Assembly: GCA_043775535.1 (NCBI GenBank)
Contig: JAYVSG010000076.1
Location: forward strand, 1 to 40,275
Source: Candidatus Omnitrophota bacterium
GTDB lineage: Bacteria; Omnitrophota; Gorgyraeia; Zapsychrales; Fredricksoniimonadaceae
Length of the DNA stretch: 40,275 nucleotides
Direction: 5' to 3'
A program made the translations under genes and the position numbers. This document shows, piece after piece, positions 1,193-23,047 of this stretch; position 1 is the first letter of the stretch; every line of letters begins with the position of its first letter. The notes under the pieces are model-generated. The model had not been told where the DNA came from and did no database searches. It saw nothing but the letters and a program-made list of their open reading frames with translations.

Positions 1193-2361
1193 TTCAATGC
1201 CGCCAATATTTTTTCGTTAAGGGTAAAATTCTCTGTGCGCCAGGACGCGGTCATGGCCGCACGGTGTTCGACCCATAGGTCCTTCCAACGGTTCCAGCCC
1301 GTCACCGGCCCTGGACGATGCACCCATGCGGGATTCGGGTAATAACTGAATATCCCATCGGGAAACATGTAATGTTTGACCGCCTTATAGGTCCAGTAAT
1401 TCCAATGGAAGCCATGATCATTGAAGCATTTGACCGTGTCCTTAACGTAACGGTCTTCCTTATACAGGCCTTCGCGGTAATGCACACCAAATTCCCCCAC
1501 ATGCACGGGACGGCCGCGCTCTTCGGCAAATTTACGGTATTCTTCAAGCCGTCGTGCCGTCGTCCCCTTGTCCCAATCCCCTGCAGCTGACTTCAACGGA
1601 TAGCGCAAATGCGGCACAAAATTGAACGTGAAATCGAGCGGTTCGTAAAAATGGATGCTGTACGCCCAGTTGTCGTCCTTAAGATCATCAAGCACGGTCA
1701 GGTCCTGAGACCAGCGGTTGCCCTCGATAAAAAGGATATGTTTCTTATCCGACAGGCGGATGACCCTGACCAATTTGCGGTAGAATTCGTTCAAGGTGCC
1801 CACATCGGCGGTGACAGACTCATTGAGCAGGTCGTAGCCTGCGACCATGGGCTCATCCTTATAGCGGTCGGCGATCTTTTCCCACAGCGCATAGGTCTGG
1901 GCGCGATTGGACCTCTTGGTCCAAAGTTCAGCCTGGCCCAGGCTGTCCGAATGCCAATCGTGGTTCTGTGCACCAGGTGCGGCATGCAGGTCCAGGATCA
2001 AATAGACATTGTATTTATTAGCCCATTGCACGGCCATGTCGAGATAATCAGTTCCATGCACGGTGATATTACGGTAATTGAACGGCAGGCGCACGCAATT
2101 GAAACCCCATTCCGCCACCTGGCGCATGTCACTCTCGGTGATGAAGTTACCGAGGAAATTTTCCTGCAGGTCGGCCAATGCCCGGATGCCCAACGCCTTG
2201 GCGAACTGCTTCTTCATCAGCTGTTCCGGTGTGTTGGGCGCATGCATGAAGTAGGCTTCCATCATGAGCCATCCGCCGAAATTGACGCCCTTGAGCATCA
2301 CCTTACGGCCATTGCCATCCACAATATCTGTTCCCGACGTGCGCAGAAATTTATCACTCAT
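1189..2361 (-). CDS. Glycoside hydrolase family 5 (cellulase / beta-glucanase-like), no signal peptide
   Basis: 390 aa. GVNFGGWLMMEAY, acid/base YDLLNE and nucleophile HVGEFG are typical of GH5. The N-terminus MSDKFLRTSGTDIVDGNG has no hydrophobic leader. Confidence 0.85.
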   Translation of the reverse strand: MSDKFLRTSGTDIVDGNGRKVMLKGVNFGGWLMMEAYFMHAPNTPEQLMKKQFAKALGIRALADLQENFLGNFITESDMRQVAEWGFNCVRLPFNYRNITVHGTDYLDMAVQWANKYNVYLILDLHAAPGAQNHDWHSDSLGQAELWTKRSNRAQTYALWEKIADRYKDEPMVAGYDLLNESVTADVGTLNEFYRKLVRVIRLSDKKHILFIEGNRWSQDLTVLDDLKDDNWAYSIHFYEPLDFTFNFVPHLRYPLKSAAGDWDKGTTARRLEEYRKFAEERGRPVHVGEFGVHYREGLYKEDRYVKDTVKCFNDHGFHWNYWTYKAVKHYMFPDGIFSYYPNPAWVHRPGPVTGWNRWKDLWVEHRAAMTASWRTENFTLNEKILAALK

Positions 2362-3185
2362 AAGAGCCCCTGGGATTGCAGGTATTTCTTGAACGCCGCA
2401 CCGGTCCTGTGGTCGCTGACGATATGCACTTCGTTATGGCCGCCGCTGGAGGTGATGAACTCCTTGGGTTCAGCCGCAGCTTCAAAGAGGCGTTGGCCCA
2501 TCGCATACGGCACAACCCGGTCCTCAGGGCTATGGATGAACAATTTGGGCATGGTGAGACCCTTGACCTTGGACAAAGAATCGAATTTGATGCGCATCAG
2601 GATGGACGGCAAATAAGGATAGAACAATTGGGCCGCCTCACGGGCGGAGGTGATGGAAGAATCCACGATGAGCAGGGCCGCAGGGCGTTTGACGGCCAGG
2701 TCCACCGCCACGATGCCGCCCAAGGACGCCCCATACAGGATGATCTTATTCATATCCACATCATCGCGGCCTTTGAGATAGTCATAGGCAGCCTGAGCGT
2801 CAAGATAGATACCCTGCTCCGTCGGATTGCCCTTGCTGGCGCCGTAACCACGGTAATCAAAGATGAGGACATTGAGCCCCAGATCATAAAAGAATTTCAC
2901 CTTCATCAAACGATCGCTCATGGTCCCGGCATTGCCATGGGAGAAAATGACGGTGGACTTAGCTGCAGGGTTTTTAAGGAACCACGCATTGATGCGAACG
3001 CCGTCGGCCGTATCCAGATAAAGGTCCTCATACGGCAGCTTCATATGTGAGGGGAACAGCGTCATTTCCTTGCCCGGAAAGAACACGGCCGTGGTCTCCA
3101 GGTAACGCACCAGGGCAAAGACCCCGGCGGCAATGACAAGGACAATAATAAGTGTTGTGGTCATGAACTTGGGCAGGGCTTTCAT
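2358..3185 (-). CDS. Alpha/beta-fold hydrolase with N-terminal membrane anchor
   Basis: Trimmed from ORF 2358..3251 to ATG 3185 (MKALPKFMTTTLIIVLVIAAGVFAL), which overlaps the response-regulator stop as ATGA. Nucleophile elbow GASLGG. HSPEDRVVP and GGHNE supply the likely Asp and His. Confidence 0.8.
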   Translation of the reverse strand: MKALPKFMTTTLIIVLVIAAGVFALVRYLETTAVFFPGKEMTLFPSHMKLPYEDLYLDTADGVRINAWFLKNPAAKSTVIFSHGNAGTMSDRLMKVKFFYDLGLNVLIFDYRGYGASKGNPTEQGIYLDAQAAYDYLKGRDDVDMNKIILYGASLGGIVAVDLAVKRPAALLIVDSSITSAREAAQLFYPYLPSILMRIKFDSLSKVKGLTMPKLFIHSPEDRVVPYAMGQRLFEAAAEPKEFITSSGGHNEVHIVSDHRTGAAFKKYLQSQGLL

Positions 3186-3577
3186 GGATTGCGCATGGGG
3201 ATCAAGGCGACCATCAGACGTATGGCCTTGATGACGTCTTCGATACGGCAAGGTTTGGTCAAATAATGGTCGGCCTGAAGACCCAAGCCTTGCTCAACAT
3301 CCTTGGTCTCGTCCAAGGCGGAAACAAGGATCACCGGCTGCCACTTCTTCGACGGCGGCTCGGCGCGCAATTTCTTGAGCACTTCCAGTCCGTCCATGCG
3401 GGGCATGGTGATGTCGAGGACGACGACATCGGGATTCTCAGAAACGATCTTGCTCCAGGCTTCTTCCCCATTCACGGCAGTGACAACGGTATATCCCTGG
3501 CTGGCCACCTTGCGGGCCATGATCTCGAGTATCCCCTCTTCATCATCAGCCAACAGCACCTTGATCGGGCCCATCAT
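3182..3577 (-). CDS. Single-domain response regulator (CheY-like receiver)
   Basis: 131 aa. VLLADDEEG, phospho-acceptor context VVVLDITMPRMDG, LVSALD, YLTKP. No output domain. Confidence 0.85.
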   Translation of the reverse strand: MMGPIKVLLADDEEGILEIMARKVASQGYTVVTAVNGEEAWSKIVSENPDVVVLDITMPRMDGLEVLKKLRAEPPSKKWQPVILVSALDETKDVEQGLGLQADHYLTKPCRIEDVIKAIRLMVALIPMRNP

Positions 3578-4050
3578 TACCTCGCGGAAGAATATTTTTT
3601 CAACTCATAGACGATCTGCGTATCCGGCATGGCGATGCGTTCGATGGCAACGCTGCCCTTGGCAAAAAATTTCTCGGCCATGGTGTCATGGTAATCAGAA
3701 AAAACCACCACCCGCTTGACCCCGGCGGTGATCAGGGCCTTAGCACAGGTGGTGCAAGGCATATTGGTAACGTAGGCGGTGGCGCCTTCAACCGCGTGGC
3801 CGCGGCGCGCTGCCTGGATCAAGGCATTCATCTCCGCATGCACGGTGCGCACGCAGTGGTTCTCGACAATGATACATCCCTCATCCTCACAATGACCGTC
3901 ACCGGGGATGGACCCGTTGTAGCCGGTCGCGATGACGTTCTTGTCCTTGGCAAGCACACAGCCGCAGTGCATGCGCGGGCAGGTGGCCCGTTCAGAAGCA
4001 AGCATGGCGAGTTTCAAGAAATATTCATCCCAGTTGGGTCTTTTAGTCAT
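3577..4050 (-). CDS. dCMP (deoxycytidylate) deaminase, ComEB-like
   Basis: 157 aa. Zinc motifs HAEMNAL and PCTTCAKAL of the CMP/dCMP deaminase fold. Confidence 0.85.
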   Translation of the reverse strand: MTKRPNWDEYFLKLAMLASERATCPRMHCGCVLAKDKNVIATGYNGSIPGDGHCEDEGCIIVENHCVRTVHAEMNALIQAARRGHAVEGATAYVTNMPCTTCAKALITAGVKRVVVFSDYHDTMAEKFFAKGSVAIERIAMPDTQIVYELKKYSSAR

Positions 4051-4061
4051 AGACGCTTTCT

Positions 4062-4122
4062 GGGGACACCCACCGTAACCCTAATTCGATAATTACGAAT
4101 TAGGGTTACGGTGGGTGTCCCC
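4062..4122. repeat. Perfect 27-bp inverted repeat with a 7-nt loop (REPIN-like hairpin), copy 1 of a 25-nt repeat family
   Basis: ggggacacccaccgtaaccctaattcg (4062-4088), loop ataatta, cgaattagggttacggtgggtgtcccc (4096-4122). The 25-nt core gggacacccaccgtaaccctaattc recurs at 18986-19010 and, inverted, near 19136-19160. It sits between the aminotransferase stop (4093-4095, inside the loop) and the dCMP deaminase start (4050). Confidence 0.9.
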
Positions 4123-5244
4123 GATTACGGTTAATATCTTAACAAATTGCTCCGTTCTCGGCAACAGGCTTACGACCAAATGGCCGGGGGCTTGAATGTC
4201 GAAAAAGAAGCCCGGATGGACCAAAATATGATGCTTATGCAAGGCTTCCAGGACAAACGCCTCTTCGTCCATGTCCCCCATATCCAAGATGGCATACCAG
4301 CCTCCCTCTACCGGAAGGACCTTCACTCCCGCATCGGTCAATATCTTGAGATTGGCCCTGACCCTGTCCATGATCTGGCCCTGCAGGTCCCCTGCACAGG
4401 CGAACCATGAGCTCAGGGCATTTTGTACCGGGGTATTCACGGACAGGAAGGTGTCGGCAATGATCTCCAATCTTTCCAGCGCCTCATGGGTAACATCCTT
4501 GGGACCGCTGGCCAGTATCCATCCAAGCTTCATCTGCGGCAGGGCCATGGCCTTGGATAAGCCTCCCATCACAAAGGTCAGCACATCCTGGTTATCTTTC
4601 AGGGAAACAAAAGGCCCTTTCTCTAGACGGTAATCCATGAATACTTCGTCGGAGATAATGGCCAGGCCATGCTTACGGCAGAAGGCATTGAGAAGCTTAA
4701 GCTCATCCGCTTTCAAATATGAACCGGTAGGATTATTGGGATTGACCAGCACAATGGCCTTTGTCCTGGCATCGACCAGATATTCCATTGTTTTAAAATC
4801 GATGTGCCAACTGCCTCCCTCATAGACCAACGGGTAATGTTCATACTCCGCATCATTGAGCTCCAGCAGGAACTGGAACAAAGGATAACTGGGCTTGGGG
4901 ACCAGGACCTTGTCGCCGGGATCCAGTAAAAGGCGGAACAGGAATGAATAGGATTCCGATGTGCTGGCCGTCAGGATGATGCGGGACGGATCAAAAGCGG
5001 TAAATTCACCGACGGCCTTGCGGGCCTGCATCATGCCGCGGGAATCGGGAACATAGTCCAGGTTCCGGGGATCAGAGAGGACTTGTGTAATTGCTTGGGG
5101 ATAATCAAAACCGCAGCGGGTGGGATTGCTTTCAGTCAGGTCAACAATATCAACAGGCTGTGCCTTCAATTCTTCCAATATGGCATTGAGGGCATTGCTT
5201 TGCCTGTCCCAGGCCGTGCGTTTGGAGAATGGTTCACGCGCCAT
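4093..5244 (-). CDS. Class I/II pyridoxal-phosphate aminotransferase
   Basis: 383 aa. NPNNPTG, and the PLP-lysine context GGLSKAMALPQMKLGW. The last 9 codons (GDTHRNPNS) and the stop are encoded by the inverted repeat at 4096-4122. Confidence 0.8.
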   Translation of the reverse strand: MAREPFSKRTAWDRQSNALNAILEELKAQPVDIVDLTESNPTRCGFDYPQAITQVLSDPRNLDYVPDSRGMMQARKAVGEFTAFDPSRIILTASTSESYSFLFRLLLDPGDKVLVPKPSYPLFQFLLELNDAEYEHYPLVYEGGSWHIDFKTMEYLVDARTKAIVLVNPNNPTGSYLKADELKLLNAFCRKHGLAIISDEVFMDYRLEKGPFVSLKDNQDVLTFVMGGLSKAMALPQMKLGWILASGPKDVTHEALERLEIIADTFLSVNTPVQNALSSWFACAGDLQGQIMDRVRANLKILTDAGVKVLPVEGGWYAILDMGDMDEEAFVLEALHKHHILVHPGFFFDIQAPGHLVVSLLPRTEQFVKILTVIGDTHRNPNS

Positions 5245-5905
5245 TGGTCTTTTTCAGACGCTCCAGTTCGGTCTTAAGCTCATCGTAGGCGCTTTTGGCC
5301 ACCCACTGGATGTCCTCGCGCTTTTCCTTGAGCTGGGCATTCGTGACTTTCAATTCCTTGATCTCTTTTTGCGCGGCGGTGAGCGTCGTTTCCAGGCTAG
5401 CAGCCTTGGTGGACAAGGTGCGCCGTTCTTCGACCGCACCATCGTGCTTGATCTTCAATTCTTGGCCCTCACGCTCCAGGCGTAGGCGCTCGGAATGTTC
5501 GCGCTCCAGGTCTTTCTCGGTGCGTATGATCTGTTCCTTAAGGTCTTTCTCATGCCCCTTGGATTTATCCAGGTTCACCTGTTCTTTTTCGCGCCAGCTT
5601 TTTTCCAGCGCCAATTTATCGACGATCTCTTTATATTTGCCCTTGGTCTCTTCGGCGTCCTTGAGCAGTTTCTTCTCCTGCATCTTCAATTTCTCAAGGT
5701 CGCCCAAAAGCGCATTGTTGTTCTTTTCCCAACGCTCGGCAATGGCCTTCCAGTCCTTTTCAGGGACAAGGCGCAGCTGTTCCTGCGATGCGGGAACGGG
5801 TTCTTTTTTCTTTTTCTTCGGTTTGGAGGACTCCGACGGCATCATGTAAATGATGATGGCGATCGCCATGAGTACTGCAAAACCTGCCATGATGATCCAA
5901 AACAT
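5234..5905 (-). CDS. Membrane-anchored coiled-coil protein, function unknown
   Basis: 223 aa. N-terminal TM helix MFWIIMAGFAVLMAIAIIIYMM, a KKKKK tract, then about 170 aa of K/E/L-rich heptad-like sequence. Confidence 0.6.
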   Translation of the reverse strand: MFWIIMAGFAVLMAIAIIIYMMPSESSKPKKKKKEPVPASQEQLRLVPEKDWKAIAERWEKNNNALLGDLEKLKMQEKKLLKDAEETKGKYKEIVDKLALEKSWREKEQVNLDKSKGHEKDLKEQIIRTEKDLEREHSERLRLEREGQELKIKHDGAVEERRTLSTKAASLETTLTAAQKEIKELKVTNAQLKEKREDIQWVAKSAYDELKTELERLKKTNGA

Positions 5906-10705: not shown

Positions 10706-11366
10706 TGAGGGACATCCTTTCGTTTTTCATGGGGATCATGATCTCGGCGTCGATCTTCTTACGGATGACATCCCGGACCCCTTTTTCCTCAGAACCCAGG
10801 ACAAAGCCCATGGGGAATTGGAATTTCACCTTGTCCATGGCGGGAGCACTCTCAACCGCGGTGCTGATGATCCAGATACCCTCGTTCTTGGCTTTTTGGA
10901 TGGCATTGGCCAAATTGCTGACGCGGGCAACCCCCAGATAATTCTCTCCGCCGCAGGCGACCCTCAACACCGCCTCGGTAACCCCCACCGCTTCGGTGGT
11001 CGGCACGATGATATCGAACCCACCCAAGGAGCCGGCCGTGCGGATGATGCCGCCCAAGTTCTGCGGATCGGTCAAATTATCAATGAAGATCAGGGTGCGT
11101 TTCTTTTCCAATGCTTGAGCGATCATTTCGCCAAAATCCATATATTTGAAATCTTCGACGTCAGCCACAATGCCCTGGGTATTGACGCTCTGGGCCAACC
11201 TTTGGATCTTGGAATACGGGACCTTGGACACAGGAATATTATGCTGGTTGCATTTCTTGAACACATAGATGCTCTCGATATGCCCCTCTTCGATCAGGAC
11301 ATGCCGTATGCTTTTGGGATTGACCTTGATGCGTTCTAAGACCGGGTTCTTTCCGTACAGTTTCAC
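10650..11366 (-). CDS. rlmB: 23S rRNA 2'-O-ribose methyltransferase, RlmB-like (SpoU family)
   Basis: Trimmed from ORF 10650..11558 to GTG 11366, which reads (M)KLYGKNPVLERIK, a typical RlmB N-terminus. This start overlaps the GT2 stop as GTGA and has GGGGA upstream. SpoU motifs DPQNLGGIIRTAGSLG, FVLGSEEKG, IPMKNERMSLNVAHAASI. Confidence 0.8.
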   Translation of the reverse strand: MKLYGKNPVLERIKVNPKSIRHVLIEEGHIESIYVFKKCNQHNIPVSKVPYSKIQRLAQSVNTQGIVADVEDFKYMDFGEMIAQALEKKRTLIFIDNLTDPQNLGGIIRTAGSLGGFDIIVPTTEAVGVTEAVLRVACGGENYLGVARVSNLANAIQKAKNEGIWIISTAVESAPAMDKVKFQFPMGFVLGSEEKGVRDVIRKKIDAEIMIPMKNERMSLNVAHAASIICWETVRQRA

Positions 11367-12100
11367 TTTTTTATCCCCAATCTGAGATAGAACAGCGGGC
11401 GCAGGATGCTCCACCAGCTGATGAAGGGTATCATTTTGGTATAGCCTCCCAATTGTTTGGGCGGGTAGATCTTGGTGACAAAAACTTCCTTGAACTTGAA
11501 TCCCAAGGTAACGGCTTTCCAAAGGATATAGGGTTCCAGTTCGTAGGTGTCCATCCATGCCTGGTCCAGGTTGATGCGCTTATCCTCGAACATCTTAACA
11601 CGCATGGCCCGAAAACCATTGGTGGTATCTGTGACCTTGCGGCCGGTGAACAAGGAAAACACATAAGGATGCATGCGGGTCGCCAGCTTGCGGTAAAAAG
11701 GCATGTCCCCGCCGGAACCGACCTTGCCAAAATAACGCGAGCCCTGCACTAGGTCATAGCCCTCTTCCACGACAGGGACCAAAAGGAACGGGATCTCTTC
11801 CGGGTTGTCCTTGTCGTTGCCCGCCATGATGACCAGGATATCGTAATGATTGGCCTGTGCGTAACGGATGGCGGTGCGGATGGCCGCGCCCACCCCGCTG
11901 CGCTTAGGATGTTTGACGCTTTTGACGCCTTGGGCAGAATAGCTTGCGATCATCTCCGTAGTGCCATCGTCGGAACCGTCATCCACGATCATGTAATCGA
12001 CCTTGGTATGGACACGGCTCTTCAGAAAACGCTCGATGACATTCTTGAGCTTTATCTTTTCATTAAAAGCGACAGGGGAAACAAGGATCTTGGGGGTCAT
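11363..12100 (-). CDS. GT2 glycosyltransferase, polyprenyl-phosphate sugar synthase type (Dpm1/ArnC/GtrB-like)
   Basis: 245 aa. MIVDDGSDDGT, LVQGSRY, TNGFRAM. Short soluble GT-A type. Confidence 0.8.
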   Translation of the reverse strand: MTPKILVSPVAFNEKIKLKNVIERFLKSRVHTKVDYMIVDDGSDDGTTEMIASYSAQGVKSVKHPKRSGVGAAIRTAIRYAQANHYDILVIMAGNDKDNPEEIPFLLVPVVEEGYDLVQGSRYFGKVGSGGDMPFYRKLATRMHPYVFSLFTGRKVTDTTNGFRAMRVKMFEDKRINLDQAWMDTYELEPYILWKAVTLGFKFKEVFVTKIYPPKQLGGYTKMIPFISWWSILRPLFYLRLGIKK

Positions 12101-12567
12101 GAAGGACTGTTTATCTTCCTAGCCGGGTTTCCGGCAACGGTGGTATGTGCAGCAACATCGCGCGTGACCATTGATCCTGCGCCGACCATGGCGCCTTCGC
12201 CGATCGTCACCCCGCACATGATGGTGGCATTGGCCCCGATGGTGGCGCCCTTCTTGACCAGGACCTTCTCGAGCTTCCAGGCGTCCGGGCGATTAGAGCG
12301 CGGATGGCGGTCATTGATGAACGCAACGCCTGCGCCAACGAAAACATCGTCTTCAAGCGTGACGCCGTCCCAAACACACACATGATTCTTCAACGTGACG
12401 TGGTTGCCGATCACAGCGCCTTTTTCAATGAAACAGCCGTCGCAAATATTGCACTGGCTGCCGACCACGGCACCGGCCAGAATGTTAGCAAAGGCCCACA
12501 CGCGTGTGCCTTCGCCCACAACAGCTTCAGGATGCACCAGCGCTTTTTCATGCTTAAAGAAACTCAT
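12097..12567 (-). CDS. Hexapeptide-repeat (left-handed beta-helix) sugar N-acetyltransferase, WbpD/WlbB-like
   Basis: 156 aa of imperfect hexapeptide repeats (VGEGTRVWAFANILAGAVVGSQCNICDGCFIEKGAVIGNHVTL...). Start overlaps the oxidoreductase stop (ATGA). Confidence 0.8.
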   Translation of the reverse strand: MSFFKHEKALVHPEAVVGEGTRVWAFANILAGAVVGSQCNICDGCFIEKGAVIGNHVTLKNHVCVWDGVTLEDDVFVGAGVAFINDRHPRSNRPDAWKLEKVLVKKGATIGANATIMCGVTIGEGAMVGAGSMVTRDVAAHTTVAGNPARKINSPS

Positions 12568-13583
12568 AGTTTAACCAGCTCGCCCTTGCGGTTGACGCTT
12601 TCCTGGATGGCGACCAGGGTGCGCACCACATCATAGGCACGGCGAGCATCAGCCAATAACGGCTCCGCCCCTTTGGTGATGCAGTCGATGAAATACTGCG
12701 CCTGGGTCTTGAGCGGTTCATTGAAGCCCAGTTTCGGGATCAGGATGCTGCCTTCCTGGGACAATAATTGGAATTCACCATAAGTTTCGTAATACACGCT
12801 GGTCTTCTCGACGTGCTTGTCATAGAGCTTGATGGGTCCTTCGGCATCCAGGTCGTCCCAGGCCACCATCTTCTTGTCGCCGACAACGGTGATCTGGCGC
12901 ACCTTCTTGGGGTCCAGCCAGCTGACGTGCACATTGACCATGACACCGGGATAATCCAGGGTCGCGAAGGTCAGGTCTTCAAGCTTGTCGCCCAGACATT
13001 TGGCCCCGCGGGCGGAAACGCTCAACGGGCAGCTGCTGAACAGATAATTGAAAATGGAAATGTCATGCGGGGCCAAGTCCCAAAGGGCGTTGACGTCGTA
13101 ACGGAAGGGCCCTAGGTTGGTGCGCTCAGAGTGGGCGTAGTGGATCTTGCCCAATTCCCCGTTCTGAATATATTCGCGCATCTTGACAATGCCCTGGTTG
13201 AACACGAACACATGCCCCACCATCAGGACCTTCTTATACGTGTGGGCCAATTCTTCAAGGATGAGACATTCCTTGGGATCCAAGGACAAGGGCTTCTCAC
13301 ACAGGACGTGCTTGCCGGCGGCCAATGCTTCCTGGGCCAGCTTGAAATGGAAATTTGTCGGCACCGCGATGACAACAGCGTCGATGGCCGGGTTCTTCAG
13401 GATGTCTTTGTAGTCCTTGGTCGGGATGATGGACGGGAAAAGCGTGGTGATGGCAGACAGGCGCCGCTCATCCAGGTCCGCACACATGAGGACCTTGGAA
13501 GAAGACGACTGGTTAAAAATACGTATGTGGTTCGGCCCCCAATGCCCGCAGCCGATGACGCCGACAGAAATCATAGGTGGCAT
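12564..13583 (-). CDS. Gfo/Idh/MocA-family NAD(P) sugar oxidoreductase, WbpB/WlbA-like
   Basis: 339 aa. Rossmann N-terminus ISVGVIGCGHWGPNHIR, EKPL motif. Paired with the WbpD-like acetyltransferase. Confidence 0.85.
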   Translation of the reverse strand: MPPMISVGVIGCGHWGPNHIRIFNQSSSSKVLMCADLDERRLSAITTLFPSIIPTKDYKDILKNPAIDAVVIAVPTNFHFKLAQEALAAGKHVLCEKPLSLDPKECLILEELAHTYKKVLMVGHVFVFNQGIVKMREYIQNGELGKIHYAHSERTNLGPFRYDVNALWDLAPHDISIFNYLFSSCPLSVSARGAKCLGDKLEDLTFATLDYPGVMVNVHVSWLDPKKVRQITVVGDKKMVAWDDLDAEGPIKLYDKHVEKTSVYYETYGEFQLLSQEGSILIPKLGFNEPLKTQAQYFIDCITKGAEPLLADARRAYDVVRTLVAIQESVNRKGELVKL

Positions 13584-13627: not shown

Positions 13628-16600
13628 TTATACCCCGGCCAAACGCTCTTCTTCCTCCTTGGCAGGCGCTAGCCCAAGCAAGGGACGGATAATATCTGCC
13701 GTGACAGGCGTGATCTGGATAATAACCGGCACCACGCTTTGCACGCCATCTTTGCGGATACGCTCAACCATGGCCGGATCGAAATCCACCTTGACCCCGT
13801 CGTTGGCGTCCTGGGTAATGCTCATGCCCATATTGGTAGAGTCAAGATCGATACCGCCTCGTATCTCTGGCTTGATCATCGCCGCATCAGCCGAATGACC
13901 GCGCAAGAAATCGACAGCATCTTTCAGATCGGCCGGATCCCTAAGCGCAATAAAGGTCCGACGAGCAACACCCTCGCCTTCATACCCATAAATAGTAGGC
14001 GGAAACCGCGGGTCCAGATTGATATTAGGATCATTTGCATACCCGATAAATGGCCTCTTCTTGCCATCGATCTCTCTTTGTTGACCTTCATCCCGCATTC
14101 TCTTTATGATCTGCTGTGCAATGGTCTCAACAGAATCGCCTTGGCTGGCCGCCAAGAAGGCAGCAACGACCGTTGCTGCTCCGGCAACTGCCAAGAGCGT
14201 TACACTATTGCCCTTTGGACTTTGCAGCCAATCGGTGACCTTTGTCAAATAATCCACTGGAAGAACGCTGGATGCCAGAATAACAACAGCCTGAGCATTC
14301 ATCGCACCATCCTGCGTGCTGACATTAGGGGTTTTGTTGGCGAGGAACTTGCTTAACATAATGCCTACCCCCACCCCAAGCCCTACTGTTACAGCATCTG
14401 GAATGATATAATTCAAATAGTACGAAGAAGGCAGATGTTCCAAGAAACGATGCAGGGTTTCTGAAGGCCAGATGCCAGTGAAGGTCGGTTTGGCAGTCGC
14501 TAGGTATGAAAGCGCGACAAAGACCGGCAGTTGGGAATTATAAAAGACCCGTCTCGCCGGATTGCCCTTGAACGTCTCCAGGGCTTTCAATCTTGCATCA
14601 TTGATACCATTGCCATTTGTCTTTGCATCCAAAGCCGCTTGTTTGAGCTCATCCGCAAATTTCTCAAAACCAGCTATCCCTCCGCCGATCATGCTGCCTG
14701 TTACGCCGAGCAGCCCCGCAAACCAGGGTGCGAAGTCAACATTGAGTCCAGCCATTGCTCCAAGCACGCCTCCGGAAGAAAGCGTTGTCAGGGCTCCCAC
14801 GATATGCCAGACATCCTTACGGAAGCGTGTATAATATTCTATTTTCTCATCGATCGTTTGAGCCTTCCTGCCTTGACGTAATTCATACTCGCTCTTAAGT
14901 ATGGCGGCAAATAATGTGGCCATGCCGGTAAAGTGCACACCCAAGACCGCTTGATATGGCGTAAGCTCTTGTAATGCCGCAGCCAGCATAGCTCCATCTT
15001 CACCACCGACCATTGCCATGTCGGTTACAACAGACATAACGTATGTCGAACCCTCCTGCTGTGCAAAATTAAGCCCCACTCCTTTTGCAAATCGTGGATT
15101 ATACAGCATTACCCTGTTGAACTTTGTCATAAGATCCATGCTCAACCTGCCCTTAACGTCAATTTCCACCAACGGGGTAAAATCGAACACGAGGACCTTG
15201 GGCGCAATGCCCTTGTCCCCCACCTCGATCCCCGGCGCACCTGATCTGAATCCCTGTGCCAATGCATCGAGCTGCATTGCCATCTGTAAGCTTTTGTCCT
15301 GTTCAGACAAACGACCCACGACCAAGGGGCCTTGCTGATCCCCGATTATTACATATCTTTCATTCCCAGCTTCAGACAGGCCAAATAACTTATTGAACGT
15401 TTGCCGATCTTCTGCTGTAAGCCCTTTCAATTCGAAGAAAGACAATCCGCTCGACAGCCGCTCCGCCTGTTTCAGGTCAAAAGAAGCTTTTAAAAGCACC
15501 TTCTTTTCTTTCTGAGGCTGCGCATTACTCTCCGATTTCTTACGTTCGATCGTAAATATTCCCACCGAGCCGCCCCTGATCGATGAGATCACATTCGACA
15601 CCACGGTTACGAAACCGGGATCCTCGTTAATGCTTATTCCCTTGCTAACGACCATCGCGGTCAAGTAATCATCGATAAAGTCATTATACCCGTTGATCTT
15701 GATGATATGGACCGGCTGAGGACTTCCATTGTATAAGGCGATCGCCGTACCAAAGAGCCCTGACCGATTAGCTGCTAACACTAACCTGACTTCTTTATAC
15801 TTCCCAGAAAAGGATGCCAGCCTTACAAGTGCAGACAATTGTTCCTTTGTTTGGGAATCGCCCAAGACTAAAGGTGTCTCACCAAAACCGATCTCCCCAA
15901 CTCGGCCGATCTCCTGGTGTCTGGCAATATCCATCTTCAATTCCACCGGCTTAAAATCATCCGGTACCATCACGGTCATGGCCCTATCTATCGGCTTAGA
16001 CACGACCGGTTTATTGACGTTAATAGCGACCTTTATGGCATAGTCTTCGCCCAATGGTCTTACAGCGCGCGCTCCCATGGCTGGATCGGTGGTGACATGC
16101 AGCATGGCCGGATCTGTGACATACCCGCCAGAGAAGTATTTGCGTGGTGTTTGGCTTGTCTCACCAGACACAACGTTGGTTGTGTCTGGGTCTTTAATAT
16201 AGTTGAATACGCCCTTCTTATACGCCTGAAGGTACTGCTCATAGATCTTTTGCTTATCACCCGTATCAGTCAGGTTAACGCCCTTGACCGTCGACTTGTC
16301 CGCGTAGACTTGATTCAGCAGGGCCTCTTTGAGATTTTTCTTGTACCACGTAGCCAGGATCTGGGAATTGAATATCTGCCTTAACATGGCAAAATTCTTT
16401 CCGGTATTGACTTCTTTCTCGATCTCAGGAAGGATGATCTCCCGGACGATCTGGGATGAAATATTGCTGGCCTTGGTCTCTGAACGGACTTCGTTCTTCT
16501 TGAGCGCATTGTAATCTTCTTCCAGCATGACCTTCAAATGCCCATCCACCACGAATGCGGTCTGATTGTGTTCATAAACCGTCGCCTTGTCCGCCATGAT

Positions 16601-17134
16601 CCACACCTTATTAAAGGTATTGACCGGAACTTCCGTCGTGCCGTACATCTGCTGGGCTTTGGCGTAGACCCTGTCCCAGAAATTCTTACCCAGTTCTTTC
16701 TCCGGGTATATCAAGGAAGCAGTGAGCTGTTTTAAGATGTAGTCCTGTGCCAGGAGATCACGTCCCAAGGCTGTTTCTCCCAGGGCCTGGGGCACCATAC
16801 GGTCTTTTTCGTAAGGGGACAGGTTGACCCAAAGGTCTTTCTCGGGAATGGTCAGGCAGGCAAAGAAATACTTCATCAATCTGTCGCCTTCAACTTTTAA
16901 GGCCTCCCCTTGCAGGGTGCTGTTGCCCGTATCCAAGATAAAATCGAAGAGGAAGGGATTGTCCTGATGCACGGTCAAACCTTTGATCAAGGCCGGTTGG
17001 TACACAGGGCTTAAATTGACCATGGCGCCTGGAACAGGCAGGCCTAAGACAGCGGCATGGGCTTGAGGGATGGGCGCCAGTGTGGAGGCAATAAAGGCAA
17101 CGATCAATAATACGCTAAGCGGTCTTTTAAGCAT
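13628..17134 (-). CDS. Large (1168 aa) exported and membrane-embedded protein of unknown function
   Basis: Longest ORF in the window. GGAG lies 7 nt upstream of ATG 17134. Signal peptide MLKRPLSVLLIVAFIASTLAPIPQAHA. About 700 aa of soluble region, then hydrophobic helices across roughly residues 730-1000, then a C-terminal GGIDL...FDPAM...VPVIIQITPV segment. I recognise no catalytic motif. Confidence 0.8.
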   Translation of the reverse strand: MLKRPLSVLLIVAFIASTLAPIPQAHAAVLGLPVPGAMVNLSPVYQPALIKGLTVHQDNPFLFDFILDTGNSTLQGEALKVEGDRLMKYFFACLTIPEKDLWVNLSPYEKDRMVPQALGETALGRDLLAQDYILKQLTASLIYPEKELGKNFWDRVYAKAQQMYGTTEVPVNTFNKVWIMADKATVYEHNQTAFVVDGHLKVMLEEDYNALKKNEVRSETKASNISSQIVREIILPEIEKEVNTGKNFAMLRQIFNSQILATWYKKNLKEALLNQVYADKSTVKGVNLTDTGDKQKIYEQYLQAYKKGVFNYIKDPDTTNVVSGETSQTPRKYFSGGYVTDPAMLHVTTDPAMGARAVRPLGEDYAIKVAINVNKPVVSKPIDRAMTVMVPDDFKPVELKMDIARHQEIGRVGEIGFGETPLVLGDSQTKEQLSALVRLASFSGKYKEVRLVLAANRSGLFGTAIALYNGSPQPVHIIKINGYNDFIDDYLTAMVVSKGISINEDPGFVTVVSNVISSIRGGSVGIFTIERKKSESNAQPQKEKKVLLKASFDLKQAERLSSGLSFFELKGLTAEDRQTFNKLFGLSEAGNERYVIIGDQQGPLVVGRLSEQDKSLQMAMQLDALAQGFRSGAPGIEVGDKGIAPKVLVFDFTPLVEIDVKGRLSMDLMTKFNRVMLYNPRFAKGVGLNFAQQEGSTYVMSVVTDMAMVGGEDGAMLAAALQELTPYQAVLGVHFTGMATLFAAILKSEYELRQGRKAQTIDEKIEYYTRFRKDVWHIVGALTTLSSGGVLGAMAGLNVDFAPWFAGLLGVTGSMIGGGIAGFEKFADELKQAALDAKTNGNGINDARLKALETFKGNPARRVFYNSQLPVFVALSYLATAKPTFTGIWPSETLHRFLEHLPSSYYLNYIIPDAVTVGLGVGVGIMLSKFLANKTPNVSTQDGAMNAQAVVILASSVLPVDYLTKVTDWLQSPKGNSVTLLAVAGAATVVAAFLAASQGDSVETIAQQIIKRMRDEGQQREIDGKKRPFIGYANDPNINLDPRFPPTIYGYEGEGVARRTFIALRDPADLKDAVDFLRGHSADAAMIKPEIRGGIDLDSTNMGMSITQDANDGVKVDFDPAMVERIRKDGVQSVVPVIIQITPVTADIIRPLLGLAPAKEEEERLAGV

Positions 17135-17224
17135 GGGATCTCCAAATCAGGATTTTTAAAATGGTGTTATACGCAAACGTAAACGCAGGAGGCAATGTAT
17201 TTTAGGGAAGATATGAGTTACGAA

Positions 17225-17252
17225 AAGATACCACATCCAAGGTCATTGTCAA
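17225..17252 (-). promoter_or_regulatory. Candidate sigma70-type promoter for the 1168-aa gene
   Basis: Minus strand reads TTGACA (17252-17247), 16-nt spacer, TATCTT (17230-17225). About 90 nt upstream of ATG 17134. Confidence 0.35.
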
Positions 17253-17313
17253 GAGGATGGCATGAACGTAACATATTACATACCAGCATTTTAAGAATAT
17301 ATTAAAAACGTTA

Positions 17314-17342
17314 TTGAAAAAAGCGCTTTCTGACGCTAAAAT
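17314..17342 (+). promoter_or_regulatory. Candidate promoter placed only 9 nt before the ATG (possible leaderless mRNA)
   Basis: TTGAAA (17314-17319), 17-nt spacer, TAAAAT (17337-17342). ATG at 17352. No Shine-Dalgarno in between. Confidence 0.35.
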
Positions 17343-17351
17343 CTGCTGGTA

Positions 17352-17768
17352 ATGATGACCCTTGCCCAAAAGACCGCGGTCGCCGCACTTATCCTGTCTG
17401 CCTCCATCAGCCTTTTCCAATTGACCGGCCGCAGCATAGTCCAAGAACAAAAGCCTGCAGGAATGCCGCTGCACAGCCTGGCCGACCAATTCAGGGGCTT
17501 GGAGAAGGTCTTTAACGGACTTCCCCGGGCCGGGTATTACTCTGACAAAAACATGGATATCCCGGTGGCCATTGCCCAATTCGAGCAGGCCCAATATATA
17601 TTGGCCCCGACGGTATTGGAACTCAATAACACATCCCTGCCCCTGATCATCTTTGACTGCACGAGCCCGGCGATCGCCATGGCCAAGATCAAGGAGCTGG
17701 GCCTTAAGCCTTTATCCGCCAGTAATACCGGGATCATCCTGGCTATTAACCCCGCGTTCGAGAAATAA
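17352..17768 (+). CDS. Small exported protein, function unknown
   Basis: 138 aa. N-terminal hydrophobic signal-like segment MMTLAQKTAVAALILSASISLF. Its stop lies 1 nt before the next ATG. Confidence 0.6.
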   Translation: MMTLAQKTAVAALILSASISLFQLTGRSIVQEQKPAGMPLHSLADQFRGLEKVFNGLPRAGYYSDKNMDIPVAIAQFEQAQYILAPTVLELNNTSLPLIIFDCTSPAIAMAKIKELGLKPLSASNTGIILAINPAFEK

Positions 17769-17769
17769 G

Positions 17770-18981
17770 ATGCTGAAAATATTATTGACCATTGCTTTGG
17801 GATTGGGGATCGCAGGCCACGGAGCATTCTACAGCCATATCGCCCTCAACATACATAACCGCGTCCTGCCGCTCGTCCTGACAGGCATCCTGGGCTGGGC
17901 ATGCTGGCAGTGGGCCGTAAAAGCGTCATTCCCGTGCAAACGGGAATCCAAAAATGGACCCTCGATAAAAACATTCGGGGGTGACAACATAGTTGGGCTG
18001 ACCATCTTGGTCATCCTCGGCATTTTCCTCTGGCTTGAAGCCAAGCATTATCCTATAGGCGGCTGGGATGCCTGGTCCTGTTGGAACCTGAAAGCCAAAT
18101 TCATTTTCTTAGGCGGCGAACGCTGGAAGGACATGCTCGACCCGCTGCTGTGGCGCAGCAATACGCAATACCCACTGCTGCTGCCGTCGATCAATGTGTG
18201 GTTCTGGGACATTCTAGGCGGCGCACCCCAATGGGTGCCGATGCTCAACAGCATCGCCTTTACCCTGCTCTCCGCCGGCATCCTGCTGTTCTCCTTGAAG
18301 CGTGCGTCCAAACAATGGCTCGTGCCCTGCCTCATGACCCTGGCTGTATTTGCCCTGCCCTTCAATGTGACGCTTGGAATCAGCCAATACAGCGATGTAC
18401 TCGTCGGGCTATATCTCCTCTGCTCCTTCGTCTGCTTATTATCCGAAGAGCTTGTCCTGTGCGGACTTTTCCTTGGTCTCTTAAGCTTCACCAAGACCGA
18501 AGGAATGCTGGCGGCCGGCATATTAGGCGCCCTGGTCGTGCTCAAACATAAAAAGAACTCTCTTCCCTTTATTGCCGCCTTTGCCATTGCCGCCCTGCCC
18601 ACAGTGATCTTCCAATTGTGCTTCGCCCCCAAGAACGAGGCCTTCATCAACGGACTCTTCTCGACGGTCAAACCATCGACATGGGACCGCCTAGAGACCA
18701 TCGCAAGCTATACGGTAACGGAATTGGCCAGCCTGAAATGGAACGGCCTATGGCTGGTATTGATCGGCGGCGTGGCAGCGTGCGGCAAGAAAGCCTGGTC
18801 CCCGCATGGCAGGATGATGGGGCTGTGCCTGGCGGCATACCTGCTGATGGTGCTGGGATATTACTACGTGAATACCTTCTTCGAGATAGGCTGGTGGATG
18901 CAGAACACGCTCAACCGCGTGCTGTTCGCAATGCTGCCGAGCGCAATGCTCTGGCTGGGCCTCTCCCTCTCTAAAAAATAA
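17770..18981 (+). CDS. Polytopic membrane protein, GT-C-like putative glycosyltransferase
   Basis: Trimmed from ORF 17653..18981 to ATG 17770 (MLKILLTIALGLGIAGHG). About 10 or more hydrophobic helices. The family assignment (ArnT/PMT-like) is tentative. Confidence 0.6.
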   Translation: MLKILLTIALGLGIAGHGAFYSHIALNIHNRVLPLVLTGILGWACWQWAVKASFPCKRESKNGPSIKTFGGDNIVGLTILVILGIFLWLEAKHYPIGGWDAWSCWNLKAKFIFLGGERWKDMLDPLLWRSNTQYPLLLPSINVWFWDILGGAPQWVPMLNSIAFTLLSAGILLFSLKRASKQWLVPCLMTLAVFALPFNVTLGISQYSDVLVGLYLLCSFVCLLSEELVLCGLFLGLLSFTKTEGMLAAGILGALVVLKHKKNSLPFIAAFAIAALPTVIFQLCFAPKNEAFINGLFSTVKPSTWDRLETIASYTVTELASLKWNGLWLVLIGGVAACGKKAWSPHGRMMGLCLAAYLLMVLGYYYVNTFFEIGWWMQNTLNRVLFAMLPSAMLWLGLSLSKK

Positions 18982-20630: not shown

Positions 20631-21224
20631 CTAGAATATTTTGAACAGGTCCCCGTCGACCAATTTCTGCTCGACGCGGTTGATTACGCGCCGCGTCTTG
20701 TGGGAAATGTACTTCCATTCCCCGACCACACTGTTGATCCCCTCGCTGGTTTCCTGCAGGGACAGGGCGGTGCGTGTGATGACACCGGCCATGTCCTCCA
20801 CATCCAGCGGGTCCTCCCCGATGATGGGCTTGCTCACGTCAAACAACTTGCGGCTGCGGTCCTCGCTGATCTCAACCAGCTTCTGCCCCAGGACGCCCTC
20901 CGTCTTGATATTGATGCGGGAACCTTTGCGCAGCTGGAACTCATACTTCTTATAGATATTGAGCGTCACCTTCAGGCTGCGGCCTTCAATGGGTTCATCC
21001 AGGAAATCCACATCCCCGACCATCCCGACATTGATGCCGGAGATGCGGATAGGTGCGCCTTCGACCAGCCCCCCGACCTCATTGAAGAGGGCGATGATCT
21101 GGAACTTGGGTTTGCTTAAACCGCGGTCCATGCCGATGAAGAACACGCTGACACCGACCAACACGATACCCGCCAGGAAGAAAAGGCCTGCCGCGATCTT
21201 CTTAATATCCGAATTTTTGTCCAT
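20631..21224 (-). CDS. mlaD: MlaD (MCE-domain) protein
   Basis: 197 aa. N-terminal TM helix, then the MCE domain FNEVGGLVEGAPIRISGINVGMVGDV. Confidence 0.85.
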   Translation of the reverse strand: MDKNSDIKKIAAGLFFLAGIVLVGVSVFFIGMDRGLSKPKFQIIALFNEVGGLVEGAPIRISGINVGMVGDVDFLDEPIEGRSLKVTLNIYKKYEFQLRKGSRINIKTEGVLGQKLVEISEDRSRKLFDVSKPIIGEDPLDVEDMAGVITRTALSLQETSEGINSVVGEWKYISHKTRRVINRVEQKLVDGDLFKIF

Positions 21225-21238
21225 ACATTCTCCGCAGT

Positions 21239-21958
21239 TTAGGCATACAAGAATTCATGCACGAACGGCGCCTTATTGGCGCGCAACTCTTCCTTTGTCC
21301 CCATGGCCGCGATCTGCCCTTCGTTCAAGAGCACCAGGCGGTCCGCAATACGGAACGAATTCTCAATATCATGGGACGTGATCACGGTCGTGGCCTTGAT
21401 CTTCCGGGCCACGCTCTTGATCAAATTGGAAATGTCCCGGCTGCGAATGGGGTCAAGGCCGGAGGTCGGCTCGTCGCACAAAAGGATCTTTGCCCCAAGC
21501 ACGATCGCACGCGCCAGGCCCACACGCTTCTTCATGCCCCCGCTTAACTCTGAGGGCATCTTATTCTCAACCTCTTCAAGGTCCACCATGGCCAAGACAT
21601 CCCGAACACGTTCCTTGATCTGGACCAACGGCCATTTGGTATGCTCACGCAAAGGAAAAGCGATGTTATCAAACACGTCCATGAAATCGTATAAAGCACC
21701 CTCTTGGAAAAGGTAGCCCATGCTCTTGCGCACTTCCAATAATTCTTCAGGCTTCAGGCGGCAGATGTCCACCCCGTCAATGAGCACCCGCCCGCTGTCC
21801 GGGGCCATCAGGCCGATCAGGTGTTTCAACAGTACGCTCTTGCCCGTACCGCTGGGGCCCAGCACCGCGAGGATCTCACCGGAGGCGACATCGAGGCTGA
21901 TATTATCCAGAACCTTCTGCCCCCCGAATGCCTTGCTTAAAGATTCGACCTTAATCAT
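21239..21958 (-). CDS. mlaF: ABC transporter ATP-binding protein, MlaF-like
   Basis: Trimmed to ATG 21958 (MIKVESLSKAFGG). Walker A GPSGTGKS, signature LSGGMKKR, Walker B LLCDEPTSGLD. Confidence 0.9.
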   Translation of the reverse strand: MIKVESLSKAFGGQKVLDNISLDVASGEILAVLGPSGTGKSVLLKHLIGLMAPDSGRVLIDGVDICRLKPEELLEVRKSMGYLFQEGALYDFMDVFDNIAFPLREHTKWPLVQIKERVRDVLAMVDLEEVENKMPSELSGGMKKRVGLARAIVLGAKILLCDEPTSGLDPIRSRDISNLIKSVARKIKATTVITSHDIENSFRIADRLVLLNEGQIAAMGTKEELRANKAPFVHEFLYA

Positions 21959-22298
21959 TTGCGCGGCGCTCAAAATAACGGTATTTACCCCGGGCGAATT
22001 TGGTATAAATGCGCTCATAGGGCTTGGCATCGACCTTCTCGACGAAGATCTGCACGTCCTTGTACTCACCGATCTGGAACACTTCCGAATCCATCAGCAC
22101 CTCGACATCATCCACGGGGAACCAGGACTTTCCCTCGAAGACAATGGGTTCGCCGTTCCTGACCCAGGAGGCCTCGATCACAGGCGCAGGATAACTCTGC
22201 AATTGCCCGATATTACCTGAATTCCGGGCACAGCCCGCACACATACATAATACAAACATCCCAATGACAGACAACATGCTCTTCATGATCAACCCCAT
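21951..22298 (-). CDS. Small lipoprotein of unknown function, inserted between mlaE and mlaF
   Basis: 111-115 aa. Signal peptide plus lipobox MKSMLSVIGMFVLCMCAGC. An alternative ATG at 22286 lies just past the mlaE stop. The 3' end overlaps the mlaF start by 8 nt. Confidence 0.6.
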   Translation of the reverse strand: MGLIMKSMLSVIGMFVLCMCAGCARNSGNIGQLQSYPAPVIEASWVRNGEPIVFEGKSWFPVDDVEVLMDSEVFQIGEYKDVQIFVEKVDAKPYERIYTKFARGKYRYFERRAND

Positions 22299-23047
22299 AA
22301 CGTTAAAATGATCTTAGTAAGTACCACATTCGACACGATGATGCTGATATAGGAATACGCCACAGCGGTGGTGGTGAAACGCCCCACCCCGACGGAACCC
22401 CCCTTGGTAAAGAACCCCTGGTAACAGCATATCCAGGCCACGATGACCGAAAAGAAAAAGGTCTTGATAAAACCGCTGAAAAAATCCACATAGCCGATGG
22501 CCTTCAAGGTCTCACGGATGTAGAACGTTCCGGGCAAATGTGCCTCATTGACCCCGATCATGTAACCGCCGGCAATGCCGACAATCTCGGAAATGATAAC
22601 CAGGACAGGCAAGACCAGGACACAGGCCAGAAAACGCGGCACCACAAGATACGCGACGGGGTTGACCCCCATGGCCTGGGTCGCCTGGATCTGCTCATTG
22701 GTGTTCATCGTACCAAGCTCGGCGGTCATGCCCGCGCCTGCCTTGCCGGAAAAGATGAGCGCCGTGAACACCGGCCCCAATTCTCTTACCAGCGACAGGC
22801 CCACCAGCGGCGCGATGAATTCCTTGGCCCCAAAGCGGTTGAGCGTCGTATACCCCTGCAGGGCCAAGACCATGCCGGAGGCCAGCGACGTCAGGATGAC
22901 AATGATCACCGACTGAACACCCTGGGCATACATTTGGGCCATCACGTCCGATGCACGCGCCTTGCCCCGAAAGATGATCTTCAGGATCTCCCCGAGGAAG
23001 AATATGGCCTCACCGATATGGACAAAGAAAGACCTTACTTGATCCAA
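22289..23047 (-). CDS. mlaE: MlaE-family ABC permease
   Basis: 252 aa (TTG start). LVRELGPVFTALIFSGKAGAGMTAELGTMNTNEQIQA..MGVNPVAYLVVPRFLA is the MlaE core. Confidence 0.9.
   Translation of the reverse strand: MDQVRSFFVHIGEAIFFLGEILKIIFRGKARASDVMAQMYAQGVQSVIIVILTSLASGMVLALQGYTTLNRFGAKEFIAPLVGLSLVRELGPVFTALIFSGKAGAGMTAELGTMNTNEQIQATQAMGVNPVAYLVVPRFLACVLVLPVLVIISEIVGIAGGYMIGVNEAHLPGTFYIRETLKAIGYVDFFSGFIKTFFFSVIVAWICCYQGFFTKGGSVGVGRFTTTAVAYSYISIIVSNVVLTKIILTLWG

Follow-up and report, generated by a model that had tools for sequence, protein, structure and literature searches.

A gene at positions 13628-17134 on the minus strand of a 40,275-nt stretch of Candidatus Omnitrophota DNA (GenBank assembly GCA_043775535.1, contig JAYVSG010000076.1; this whole stretch is called the window in what follows) encodes a member of a very large, undescribed protein family. 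The proteins of this family share one architecture, in which a Sec-type signal peptide and an N-terminal domain of ~310 aa (N-domain) are followed by exchangeable, unrelated cargo modules and by a C-terminal domain of ~75 aa starting from GGIDL (C-domain). A short motif, [D>N>S]-x-A-M, is the junction signal of the family and is placed after the N-domain, between all cargo modules, and before the C-domain. A preliminary description of the window had treated its 1168-aa protein (the window protein) as an orphan; this was wrong for both ends, because they are the defining parts of a family comprising more than 8,000 clusters.

More than 4,292 matches were returned when 5.8 billion proteins were searched. 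Among the listed relatives, residues 1-345 of the window protein are common to 119 of 119 at 50-73% identity and residues ~1087-1160 to 117 of 119, and almost nothing aligns between these two regions. With a profile of the N-domain, 8,267 representatives of 50%-identity clusters were identified, 6,565 of them at E≤1e-30 and with the domain always at residues ~1-340 throughout the set, and 315 copies were confirmed in a scan of one genome per species. The loci that were kept number 79 and come from 37 metagenome-assembled genomes (MAGs), with up to 7 loci in a single MAG, and many MAGs carry more than one copy; the named source records are Candidatus Omnitrophota MAGs or belong to one MAG series titled "uncultured Planctomycetales." In a 30-sequence alignment, the N-domain has ~90 invariant positions, which the window protein also has, and carries the signatures NPFLFDF, DLWVNLSPYE, LKQLTASLIYPE, PVNTFNKVWI, and RKYFSGG. 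GGID is invariant in the alignment of the C-domain (A3), which often ends in ...RLAGV. A Sec-type signal peptide is found on nearly all members, and its layout across the relatives consists of a K/R-rich start, a hydrophobic core, and the end P-x-A-H-A↓D, where the arrow marks the predicted cleavage. A destination in the envelope or outside the cell, much as had been proposed for the window protein, is in keeping with this signal.

No known counterpart was found for either end domain. The N-domain and the C-domain have no match in Pfam, NCBIfam, PHROGs, PADLOC, or PDB sequences; a Pfam scan of 20 N-domains at E≤10 yielded no recurring family, and PDB profile searches with both domains gave low-complexity or insignificant matches only. 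The family was not described in the literature found with the peptide signatures GGIDL, YFSGG, and NPFLFDF or with searches on Omnitrophota secreted, effector, or fusion proteins. The AlphaFold2 (AF2) model of the N-domain (predicted local distance difference test [pLDDT] score = 70, predicted TM-score = 0.65) takes the shape of three helices, a long β-hairpin (177-204), and three more helices, and it has no significant structural neighbor in PDB or BFVD by Foldseek. NheA, ClyA, SmhA, and MakE lead two of the Foldseek lists at insignificant values (E≥0.2, probability≤0.08, TM≤0.15) for a model of moderate confidence, and a likeness of the modeled N-domain to the ClyA family of pore-forming toxins is taken as a lead only.

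Some features of the end domains vary among members. The C-terminal tail ...(E)RLAGV-COOH or a close variant is present in 28 of the 171 members by a loose pattern, including the window protein (13631-13645, minus strand); other members stop ~10-15 aa before the position of this tail, which may be a separate terminal signal. Many relatives have in-frame insertions in two loops of the otherwise rigid N-domain (~residues 210-225 and 285-295 of the window protein). These read VIPAKAGIQ/H, VIASEAKQS, PLVGGARGG, PNPPHKGGG, or SPIKTFGDD and resemble translated palindromic repeats, similar to repetitive extragenic palindromic (REP) or miniature inverted-repeat transposable element (MITE) sequences, that are tolerated in coding sequence. 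At one locus (L009), the family gene is in tandem with a divergent member situated immediately upstream (7-5565, plus strand, 1852 aa). The N-domain of this divergent member shows 52.6% identity, RKYASGG replaces RKYFSGG, its C-domain has GGIDMD, and its only two DxAM motifs, one at each bookend junction, enclose a single cargo of ~1,400 aa.

The motif was first apparent in the window protein, in which D-x-A-M occurs in eight copies, at residues 341, 350, 383, 705, 713, 942, 1083, and 1119. From the composition, 0.18 copies are expected; none of 20,000 shuffles reached 5, the maximum being 3, and D-x-A-M is the sole X-x-Y-Z pattern with at least 4 copies in the protein (Poisson P of ~2e-11). 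Among the other open reading frames (ORFs) of the window with a length of 150 aa or more, none contains the motif more than once. The preliminary description had listed the same eight residues, had estimated far fewer than one copy by chance, and had regarded the motif as special to this one protein of the window, all of which is borne out by these counts. The enrichment extends to the family: 430 DxAM motifs were observed against 17.5 expected in 120 proteins, and in the 171 complete members the observed and expected numbers are 634 and 25.8 for DxAM, 184 and 21.5 for NxAM, and 98 and 26.3 for SxAM. The first motif position shows no excess of E, K, G, or R, and DxAM is not enriched in the flanking ORFs outside the family (9 observed and 7.4 expected). 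A chance origin of the motif is excluded by the counts in the window protein, in the 120 proteins, and in the 171 complete members alike.

The consensus is [S/A/P]-[D>N>S]-[A>>others]-A-M-[T/A/...]-[A/S/V/T/G]. The x position of the linker motifs is Ala in 40% and Pro in 5%, the residue after the motif Met is usually T, A, S, V, or G, and the flanks consist of small, polar, flexible residues. Where alignments with an identity of 70% or less cross a motif, conservation reaches 86-91% for D, A, and M versus 27-55% for x and the flanks, which shows that D, A, and M are under purifying selection. None of the 171 complete members lacks a linker motif, and the number per protein ranges from 1 to 13 (median 4). 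The median distances are 15 aa from RKYFSGG to the first motif and 16 aa from the last motif to GGIDL. N-domains are nearly free of the motif (8 matches in 59,235 aa). Tandem copies with 8- to 40-aa spacers are common, and 20% of the spacings are at most 40 aa. When variable regions are compared, 39% of the homology block ends lie no more than 5 aa from a motif, compared with 5.5% for random positions. The pairing of copies noticed in the window protein is accordingly a habit of the family, and the idea that the motif marks module boundaries has held up, given that it brackets complete, unrelated domains in the relatives and that homology blocks end at it; the comparison of homologues that had been suggested for this point shows both the conservation of D, A, and M and the coincidence with domain boundaries.

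The eight sites of the window protein differ in their codons (GATCCGGCCATG, GATAGGGCCATG, GACATGGCAATG, GATGGTGCGATG, and others), so the repeat exists at the protein level and is not a DNA repeat. At 82% of the D-x-A-M sites, the Ala directly before the motif ATG is encoded by GCC or GCG, whereas these two codons make up 53% of all Ala codons of the same genes, and the Asp of D-x-A-M somewhat overuses GAC (loci L001-L079 and the window).

The organization of the window protein is as follows, with all positions given in the window.

13628..17134, minus strand: complete coding sequence, 1168 aa and stop codon, ATG start (ORF list and translation).
17140..17143, minus strand: GGAG core resembling a Shine-Dalgarno sequence, 5 nt before the ATG (seen in the upstream sequence ...TTTGGAGATCCC-ATG).
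17054..17134, minus strand: Sec-type signal peptide, residues 1-27, predicted cleavage after AHA (sequence and layout common to the relatives).
16124..17053, minus strand: conserved N-terminal family domain, residues 28-337, ending in RKYFSGG (50-73% identical in the 119 listed relatives).
16103..16114, minus strand: DPAM 341-344, junction between N-domain and cargo (motif position and family context).
16076..16087, minus strand: DPAM 350-353, tandem copy after a 9-aa spacer (motif position).
15977..15988, minus strand: DRAM 383-386, after a 33-aa spacer and directly before cargo module A (homology with P0008, P0035, and L014 starts here).
15011..15976, minus strand: cargo module A, residues 387-708, soluble, ending in DMAM (705-708) (segmentation).
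14987..14998, minus strand: DGAM 713-716, tandem copy 8 aa after DMAM (D-x-A-M stands here in all six carriers of module B).
14300..14986, minus strand: cargo module B, residues 717-945, glycine-zipper-rich hydrophobic (membrane) cassette, ending in DGAM (942-945) (homology and hydropathy).
13877..14299, minus strand: cargo module C, residues 946-1086, one strong hydrophobic helix (975-998) and a soluble part, ending in DAAM (1083-1086) (hydropathy and segmentation).
13631..13876, minus strand: conserved C-terminal family domain, residues 1087-1168, GGIDL ... DPAM ... PVI..ITPV..LLGL ... ERLAGV (aligned in 117 of the 119 relatives).
13769..13780, minus strand: DPAM 1119-1122 inside the C-terminal domain (modeled with low confidence by AF2 as the cap and first turn of helix 1120-1128).

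The plus-strand translation of 13628-17134 is full of stops, and the gene lies on the minus strand. The reality of the 1168-aa reading frame, the cleavable look of its signal peptide, and the presence of the C-terminal module quoted in the preliminary description were all upheld. The N-terminus MLKRPLSVLLIVAFIASTLAPIPQAHA↓A resembles a cleavable Sec signal peptide; here and below, signal peptide and membrane topology were judged by eye from sequence and hydropathy. The description of ~700 aa of soluble sequence followed by hydrophobic helices also agrees with the hydropathy profile, in which residues 28-727 contain no hydrophobic segment and the helices fall within ~728-998, with segments at ~728-747, 909-932, and 975-998 and weaker glycine-rich ones at 770-820. 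The copies at 341, 350, 383, 705, 713, 942, and 1083 follow the junction pattern of the family and delimit three modules: a soluble one of 322 aa, a glycine-zipper membrane cassette of 229 aa, and one of 141 aa that contains a single hydrophobic helix. The DPAM at 1119 is probably structural rather than a linker copy, because it is modeled at the start of a helix and part of the family has L, I, or E in place of its Met; D.AM is kept at this internal site of the C-domain in 103 of the 171 members.

Two of the cargo modules of the window protein, one of them in part, are also shared with relatives. The first ~105 aa of module A are common to P0008, P0035, and L014, and module B is 23-52% identical to motif-bounded cassettes of P0002, P0003, P0004, P0022, and P0070, being preceded by D-x-A-M in 6 of the 6 carriers (the window protein and these five relatives). 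Module A (387-708) has no Pfam match, and its database-wide homolog search, which was limited by a word prefilter, returned nothing; the database search with residues 387-1086 found only the protein itself and is unreliable, as the prefilter missed module B relatives of 40-52% identity. Whole-protein scans of Pfam, NCBIfam, PHROGs, and PADLOC produced nothing meaningful, the best profile matches being insignificant and both located in the glycine-rich hydrophobic stretch (DUF3482, E=0.13; a tape-measure PHROG, E=0.043). The PDB sequence search with the full-length profile gave only low-complexity or insignificant matches. The full-length AF2 model has a pLDDT of 45 and is unusable for the middle of the protein, and the Foldseek list obtained with it has no significant neighbor and is meaningless. 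The earlier statement that no characterized family is recognizable agrees with the empty Pfam and NCBIfam scans; the trivial explanation of the motif that profile and Foldseek searches had been thought able to provide did not materialize, since no confident family match emerged.

In the relatives, the cargo includes domains that are recognized by Pfam, namely, adenylate kinase (five proteins), response-regulator receiver, malate synthase with isocitrate lyase, phosphoglycerate kinase (PGK), enolase (enolase-like), Glu/Leu/Phe/Val dehydrogenase, UDP-glucose pyrophosphorylase, hexokinase, transaldolase, acyl carrier protein, XRE helix-turn-helix, the RNA polymerase alpha C-terminal domain, methyltransferases, inositol monophosphatase, LysM, and HEAT repeats. 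Some of these are complete and high scoring, such as PGK (277-305 bits) and the adenylate kinase of P0026 (163 bits, with an intact P-loop), and several others are divergent or partial. In P0106, the order is N-domain, DKAM, 19 aa, NAAM, PGK, SAAM, 13 aa, DAAM, and C-domain, with each motif closing the segment before it. Residues 4-424 of the PGK bead align end to end with residues 2-393 of solved bacterial PGKs in PDB, so the motif Met of P0106 sits at the native start position of PGK. In P0039, the acyl carrier protein domain (685-748) lies within the bead 678-758 with DAAM on either side, and P0044 consists of two large beads separated by the motif, with the precomputed Pfam domains PEP_mutase, isocitrate lyase, and malate synthase. 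The cargo has no hydrophobic segment in 62% of the members and one to four in 38%.

The reading that we tentatively favor, and to which we give a little less than an even chance, is that the family represents exported beads-on-a-string polyproteins in which the motif is a site-specific processing signal. We infer export, cleavage, and any delivery of the modules to the cell surface or to other cells. The precursor would leave the cytoplasm through Sec; a common trans-acting factor, most likely a site-specific endopeptidase, would recognize the junction motifs; and the beads, which include whole enzymes in the relatives, would be released or rearranged outside the cytoplasm. Processing is favored because the Met, a rare residue, is invariant whatever module or fold follows, because tandem sites with short spacers occur, because the flanks are small and polar, and because the motif lies exactly at the natural termini of whole proteins.

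Several observations weigh against processing. No protease domain is recognized in the window protein; among 47 loci there is no conserved neighbor gene for a protease, secretion, or immunity, and only further family members recur. PGK, adenylate kinase, receiver, helix-turn-helix, and acyl carrier cargo is normally cytoplasmic and is awkward behind a Sec signal peptide, which, like the topology, is read from sequence and hydropathy only. The structure models are weak (pLDDT of 45 for the full length and 70 for the N-domain) and have no significant structural neighbors. D, N, and S at the first position and Pro at x are classic helix N-cap residues, the C-domain copy is modeled as the start of a helix, and the motif could be a structural or docking site instead of a cut site.

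These last points lead to the strongest of the alternatives, which keeps the same architecture and leaves the motif uncleaved: the motif would form a helix N-cap and first turn, or would dock a chaperone, a sorting or secretion factor, or the N-domain, and the modules would stay tethered, for example, as a variable surface array. We consider this possible but on the whole rather unlikely. It agrees with the residues at the first position and with Pro or Ala as the typical next residue, with the modeled helix 1120-1128 that starts at the C-domain copy, and with the lack of a protease partner in the Pfam and NCBIfam scans of the window protein and among the neighbor genes at the 47 loci; the hydrophobic cargo segments in 38% of the members could also anchor an intact protein. 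However, a simple linker or cap needs no invariant Met, although D, A, and M are conserved at 86-91%, and it does not need tandem copies with 8- to 40-aa spacers. Furthermore, the same motif is used whatever fold follows, which argues for a shared reader rather than for local structure.

The position of the motif Met in P0106, at the native PGK initiator, suggests a different origin, in which this Met is a retained start codon, the modules are translated from in-frame internal starts as cytoplasmic enzymes, and only the N-domain is exported. Such an arrangement would resolve the paradox of cytoplasmic-type enzymes behind a signal peptide, and the frequent T, A, S, G, or V after the Met is as in natural N-termini. 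Nevertheless, Shine-Dalgarno cores are found before 46% of the true family starts and before 10% of the internal ATGs outside the motif, but before only 6% of the motif ATGs. What is selected is amino-acid identity, namely, D and A and, at the first position, D>N>S; purine-rich codons, such as those specifying E, K, G, and R, show no enrichment at that position, and the codon before the ATG is biased toward the G+C-rich GCC and GCG. Internal initiation is improbable on these grounds.

Calcium- or acid-dependent self-cleavage at Asp-Pro bonds, the FrpC analogy of the preliminary description, is suggested by D-P in 3 of the 8 copies of the window protein and is highly improbable, as x is Ala in 40% and Pro in only 5% of the linker motifs of the family, D can give way to N or S, conservation falls on A and M and not on P, and no self-processing-type domain appears in the Pfam and NCBIfam scans (the coverage of that module by the libraries is unconfirmed). 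A translated DNA-level signal, that is, a recombination or cassette-insertion site or a repeat scar, would account for the exchange of cassettes among paralogs with breakpoints at the motif and for the preference for GCC or GCG before the ATG (82% versus 53% overall), but it hardly merits belief when all synonymous and x positions vary (GATCCGGCCATG, GACATGGCAATG, GATGGTGCGATG, and others), 12 nt with 5 free positions are too little for homologous or typical site-specific recombination, the N and S variants alter the first codon, and neither a wider conserved nucleotide context nor a consistently linked recombinase is seen.

The processing reading can be extended to a "polyprotein code," in which hundreds to thousands of Sec-exported precursors use the N-domain as a carrier or membrane-translocation device and a dedicated protease cuts at [D/N/S]-x-A-M, such that freed enzymes and membrane-inserting cassettes act on the cell surface or in a host or prey; the code might even extend to the cleavage points of the giant proteins of the phylum. 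This extension is speculative, and we hold it to be unlikely. If processing is true, it would be a rare systematic use of polyproteins in bacteria and would provide a catalogue of candidate effectors for a whole phylum, and the motif predicts the exact candidate sites of cleavage or recognition. Even if the proteins are not cleaved, the motif lets thousands of "hypothetical proteins" be split automatically into modules for structure prediction and annotation. The phylum Omnitrophota is widespread, mostly uncultured, and ultra-small, and its members are suspected predators or parasites (PMC10066038).

The surroundings of the gene in the window were also inspected. Directly downstream, at 11363-13583 on the minus strand, a set of genes with overlapping stops and starts encodes a GFO/IDH/MocA oxidoreductase, a hexapeptide-repeat acyltransferase, and a family-2 glycosyltransferase; this set resembles a sugar-modification operon and is not conserved at other family loci. 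The divergently oriented neighbor, the ORF at 17653-18981 on the plus strand, encodes a polytopic membrane protein without a Pfam match. Within it, a REP/MITE-like element (…PCKRESKNGPSIKTFGGDN…), of which the window has one copy, lies in frame at 17926-18006 on the plus strand, and two strong hairpins, one of which is ATTCCCGT-GCAA-ACGGGAAT, are formed by its DNA, with -28.4 kcal/mol over 81 nt. At 20631-23047 on the minus strand, an MlaD, ABC ATPase, and MlaE set of the outer-membrane lipid-transport type is followed by a lysyl-phosphatidylglycerol-synthase-like membrane protein, and this set is consistent with a diderm envelope. The G+C content is 0.49-0.50 at 14001-18000 versus 0.53-0.57 for most of the window, and 14001-16000 has the strongest negative GC skew in the window (-0.16). 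Low G+C content and skew fit compositionally distinct cargo, which was possibly gained by exchange.

No known bacterial arrangement combines an export signal with two novel conserved domains and with exchangeable cargo, among which are a whole glycolytic enzyme and enzyme domains of the glyoxylate shunt, and we could file the family and its junction code under none of the known kinds of system, although several share individual features with it. The MARTX toxins (Vibrio RtxA family) similarly have conserved N- and C-terminal regions around a variable array of unrelated domains, and their effector domains are swapped as cassettes and freed by cleavage at short interdomain sites, whereas cleavage would be a prediction for the Omnitrophota family. 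In contrast to the latter, MARTX toxins use type I secretion without a Sec signal peptide. They also contain RTX-type glycine-rich repeats and, internally, a cysteine protease domain with cleavage after Leu; Pfam and NCBIfam detected none of these features here, and there is no sequence or structural similarity between the two.

In the polymorphic toxins (CdiA with VENN, Rhs with DPxGL, and MafB), a short peptide likewise borders a conserved delivery part and swappable modules, and many paralogs are present per genome. However, each of these systems has only one junction, carries its toxin part at the C terminus, and is accompanied by an immunity gene next to it, whereas the Omnitrophota proteins have 1-13 junctions and housekeeping-type enzymes and no conserved neighbor in the 47 loci; the two-partner secretion (TPS), filamentous hemagglutinin (FHA), or RHS repeats of CdiA and Rhs were not detected with Pfam, and the junction motif differs. 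The P97/P102 adhesins of Mycoplasma hyopneumoniae are surface paralog families that are cut at the recurring S/T-x-F↓x-D/E, with the cleavage shown by proteomics. Their motif is another one, and they have neither conserved end domains nor enzyme cassettes; for the Omnitrophota family, cleavage at the motif is a proposal.

The cargo of type IX secretion and the gingipain polyproteins of Bacteroidota resemble the present family in the Sec signal peptide, in a conserved C-terminal domain of ~80 aa, and in multidomain precursors, which are processed there after export. They differ in having no conserved N-domain, in processing by gingipains at Arg or Lys, and in the phylum, and the models of the type IX C-terminal domain gave no match in the NCBIfam scan at E≤1 or in the Pfam scan. 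FrpC of Neisseria also has an Asp-containing site at a module border of an exported protein, but its cleavage depends on an Asp-Pro bond and on a self-processing domain that follows the site. In the Omnitrophota family, Pro occupies x only in a minority of the motifs, and the scans of the window protein revealed no domain of that kind (with library coverage unconfirmed).

Within the phylum itself, giant Omnitrophota proteins termed archaeovorins have been proposed to be exported or membrane associated and to be cut into several products, with the cleavage points stated to be unknown (bioRxiv 10.1101/2023.11.21.568195). The archaeovorins differ from the present family in that they exceed 10,000 aa, contain C39 and S8 peptidases, and are encoded beside a conserved secretion locus (bioRxiv 10.1101/2023.11.21.568195); what the two have in common is the phylum Omnitrophota, together with the proposed export and the proposed cutting into several products.

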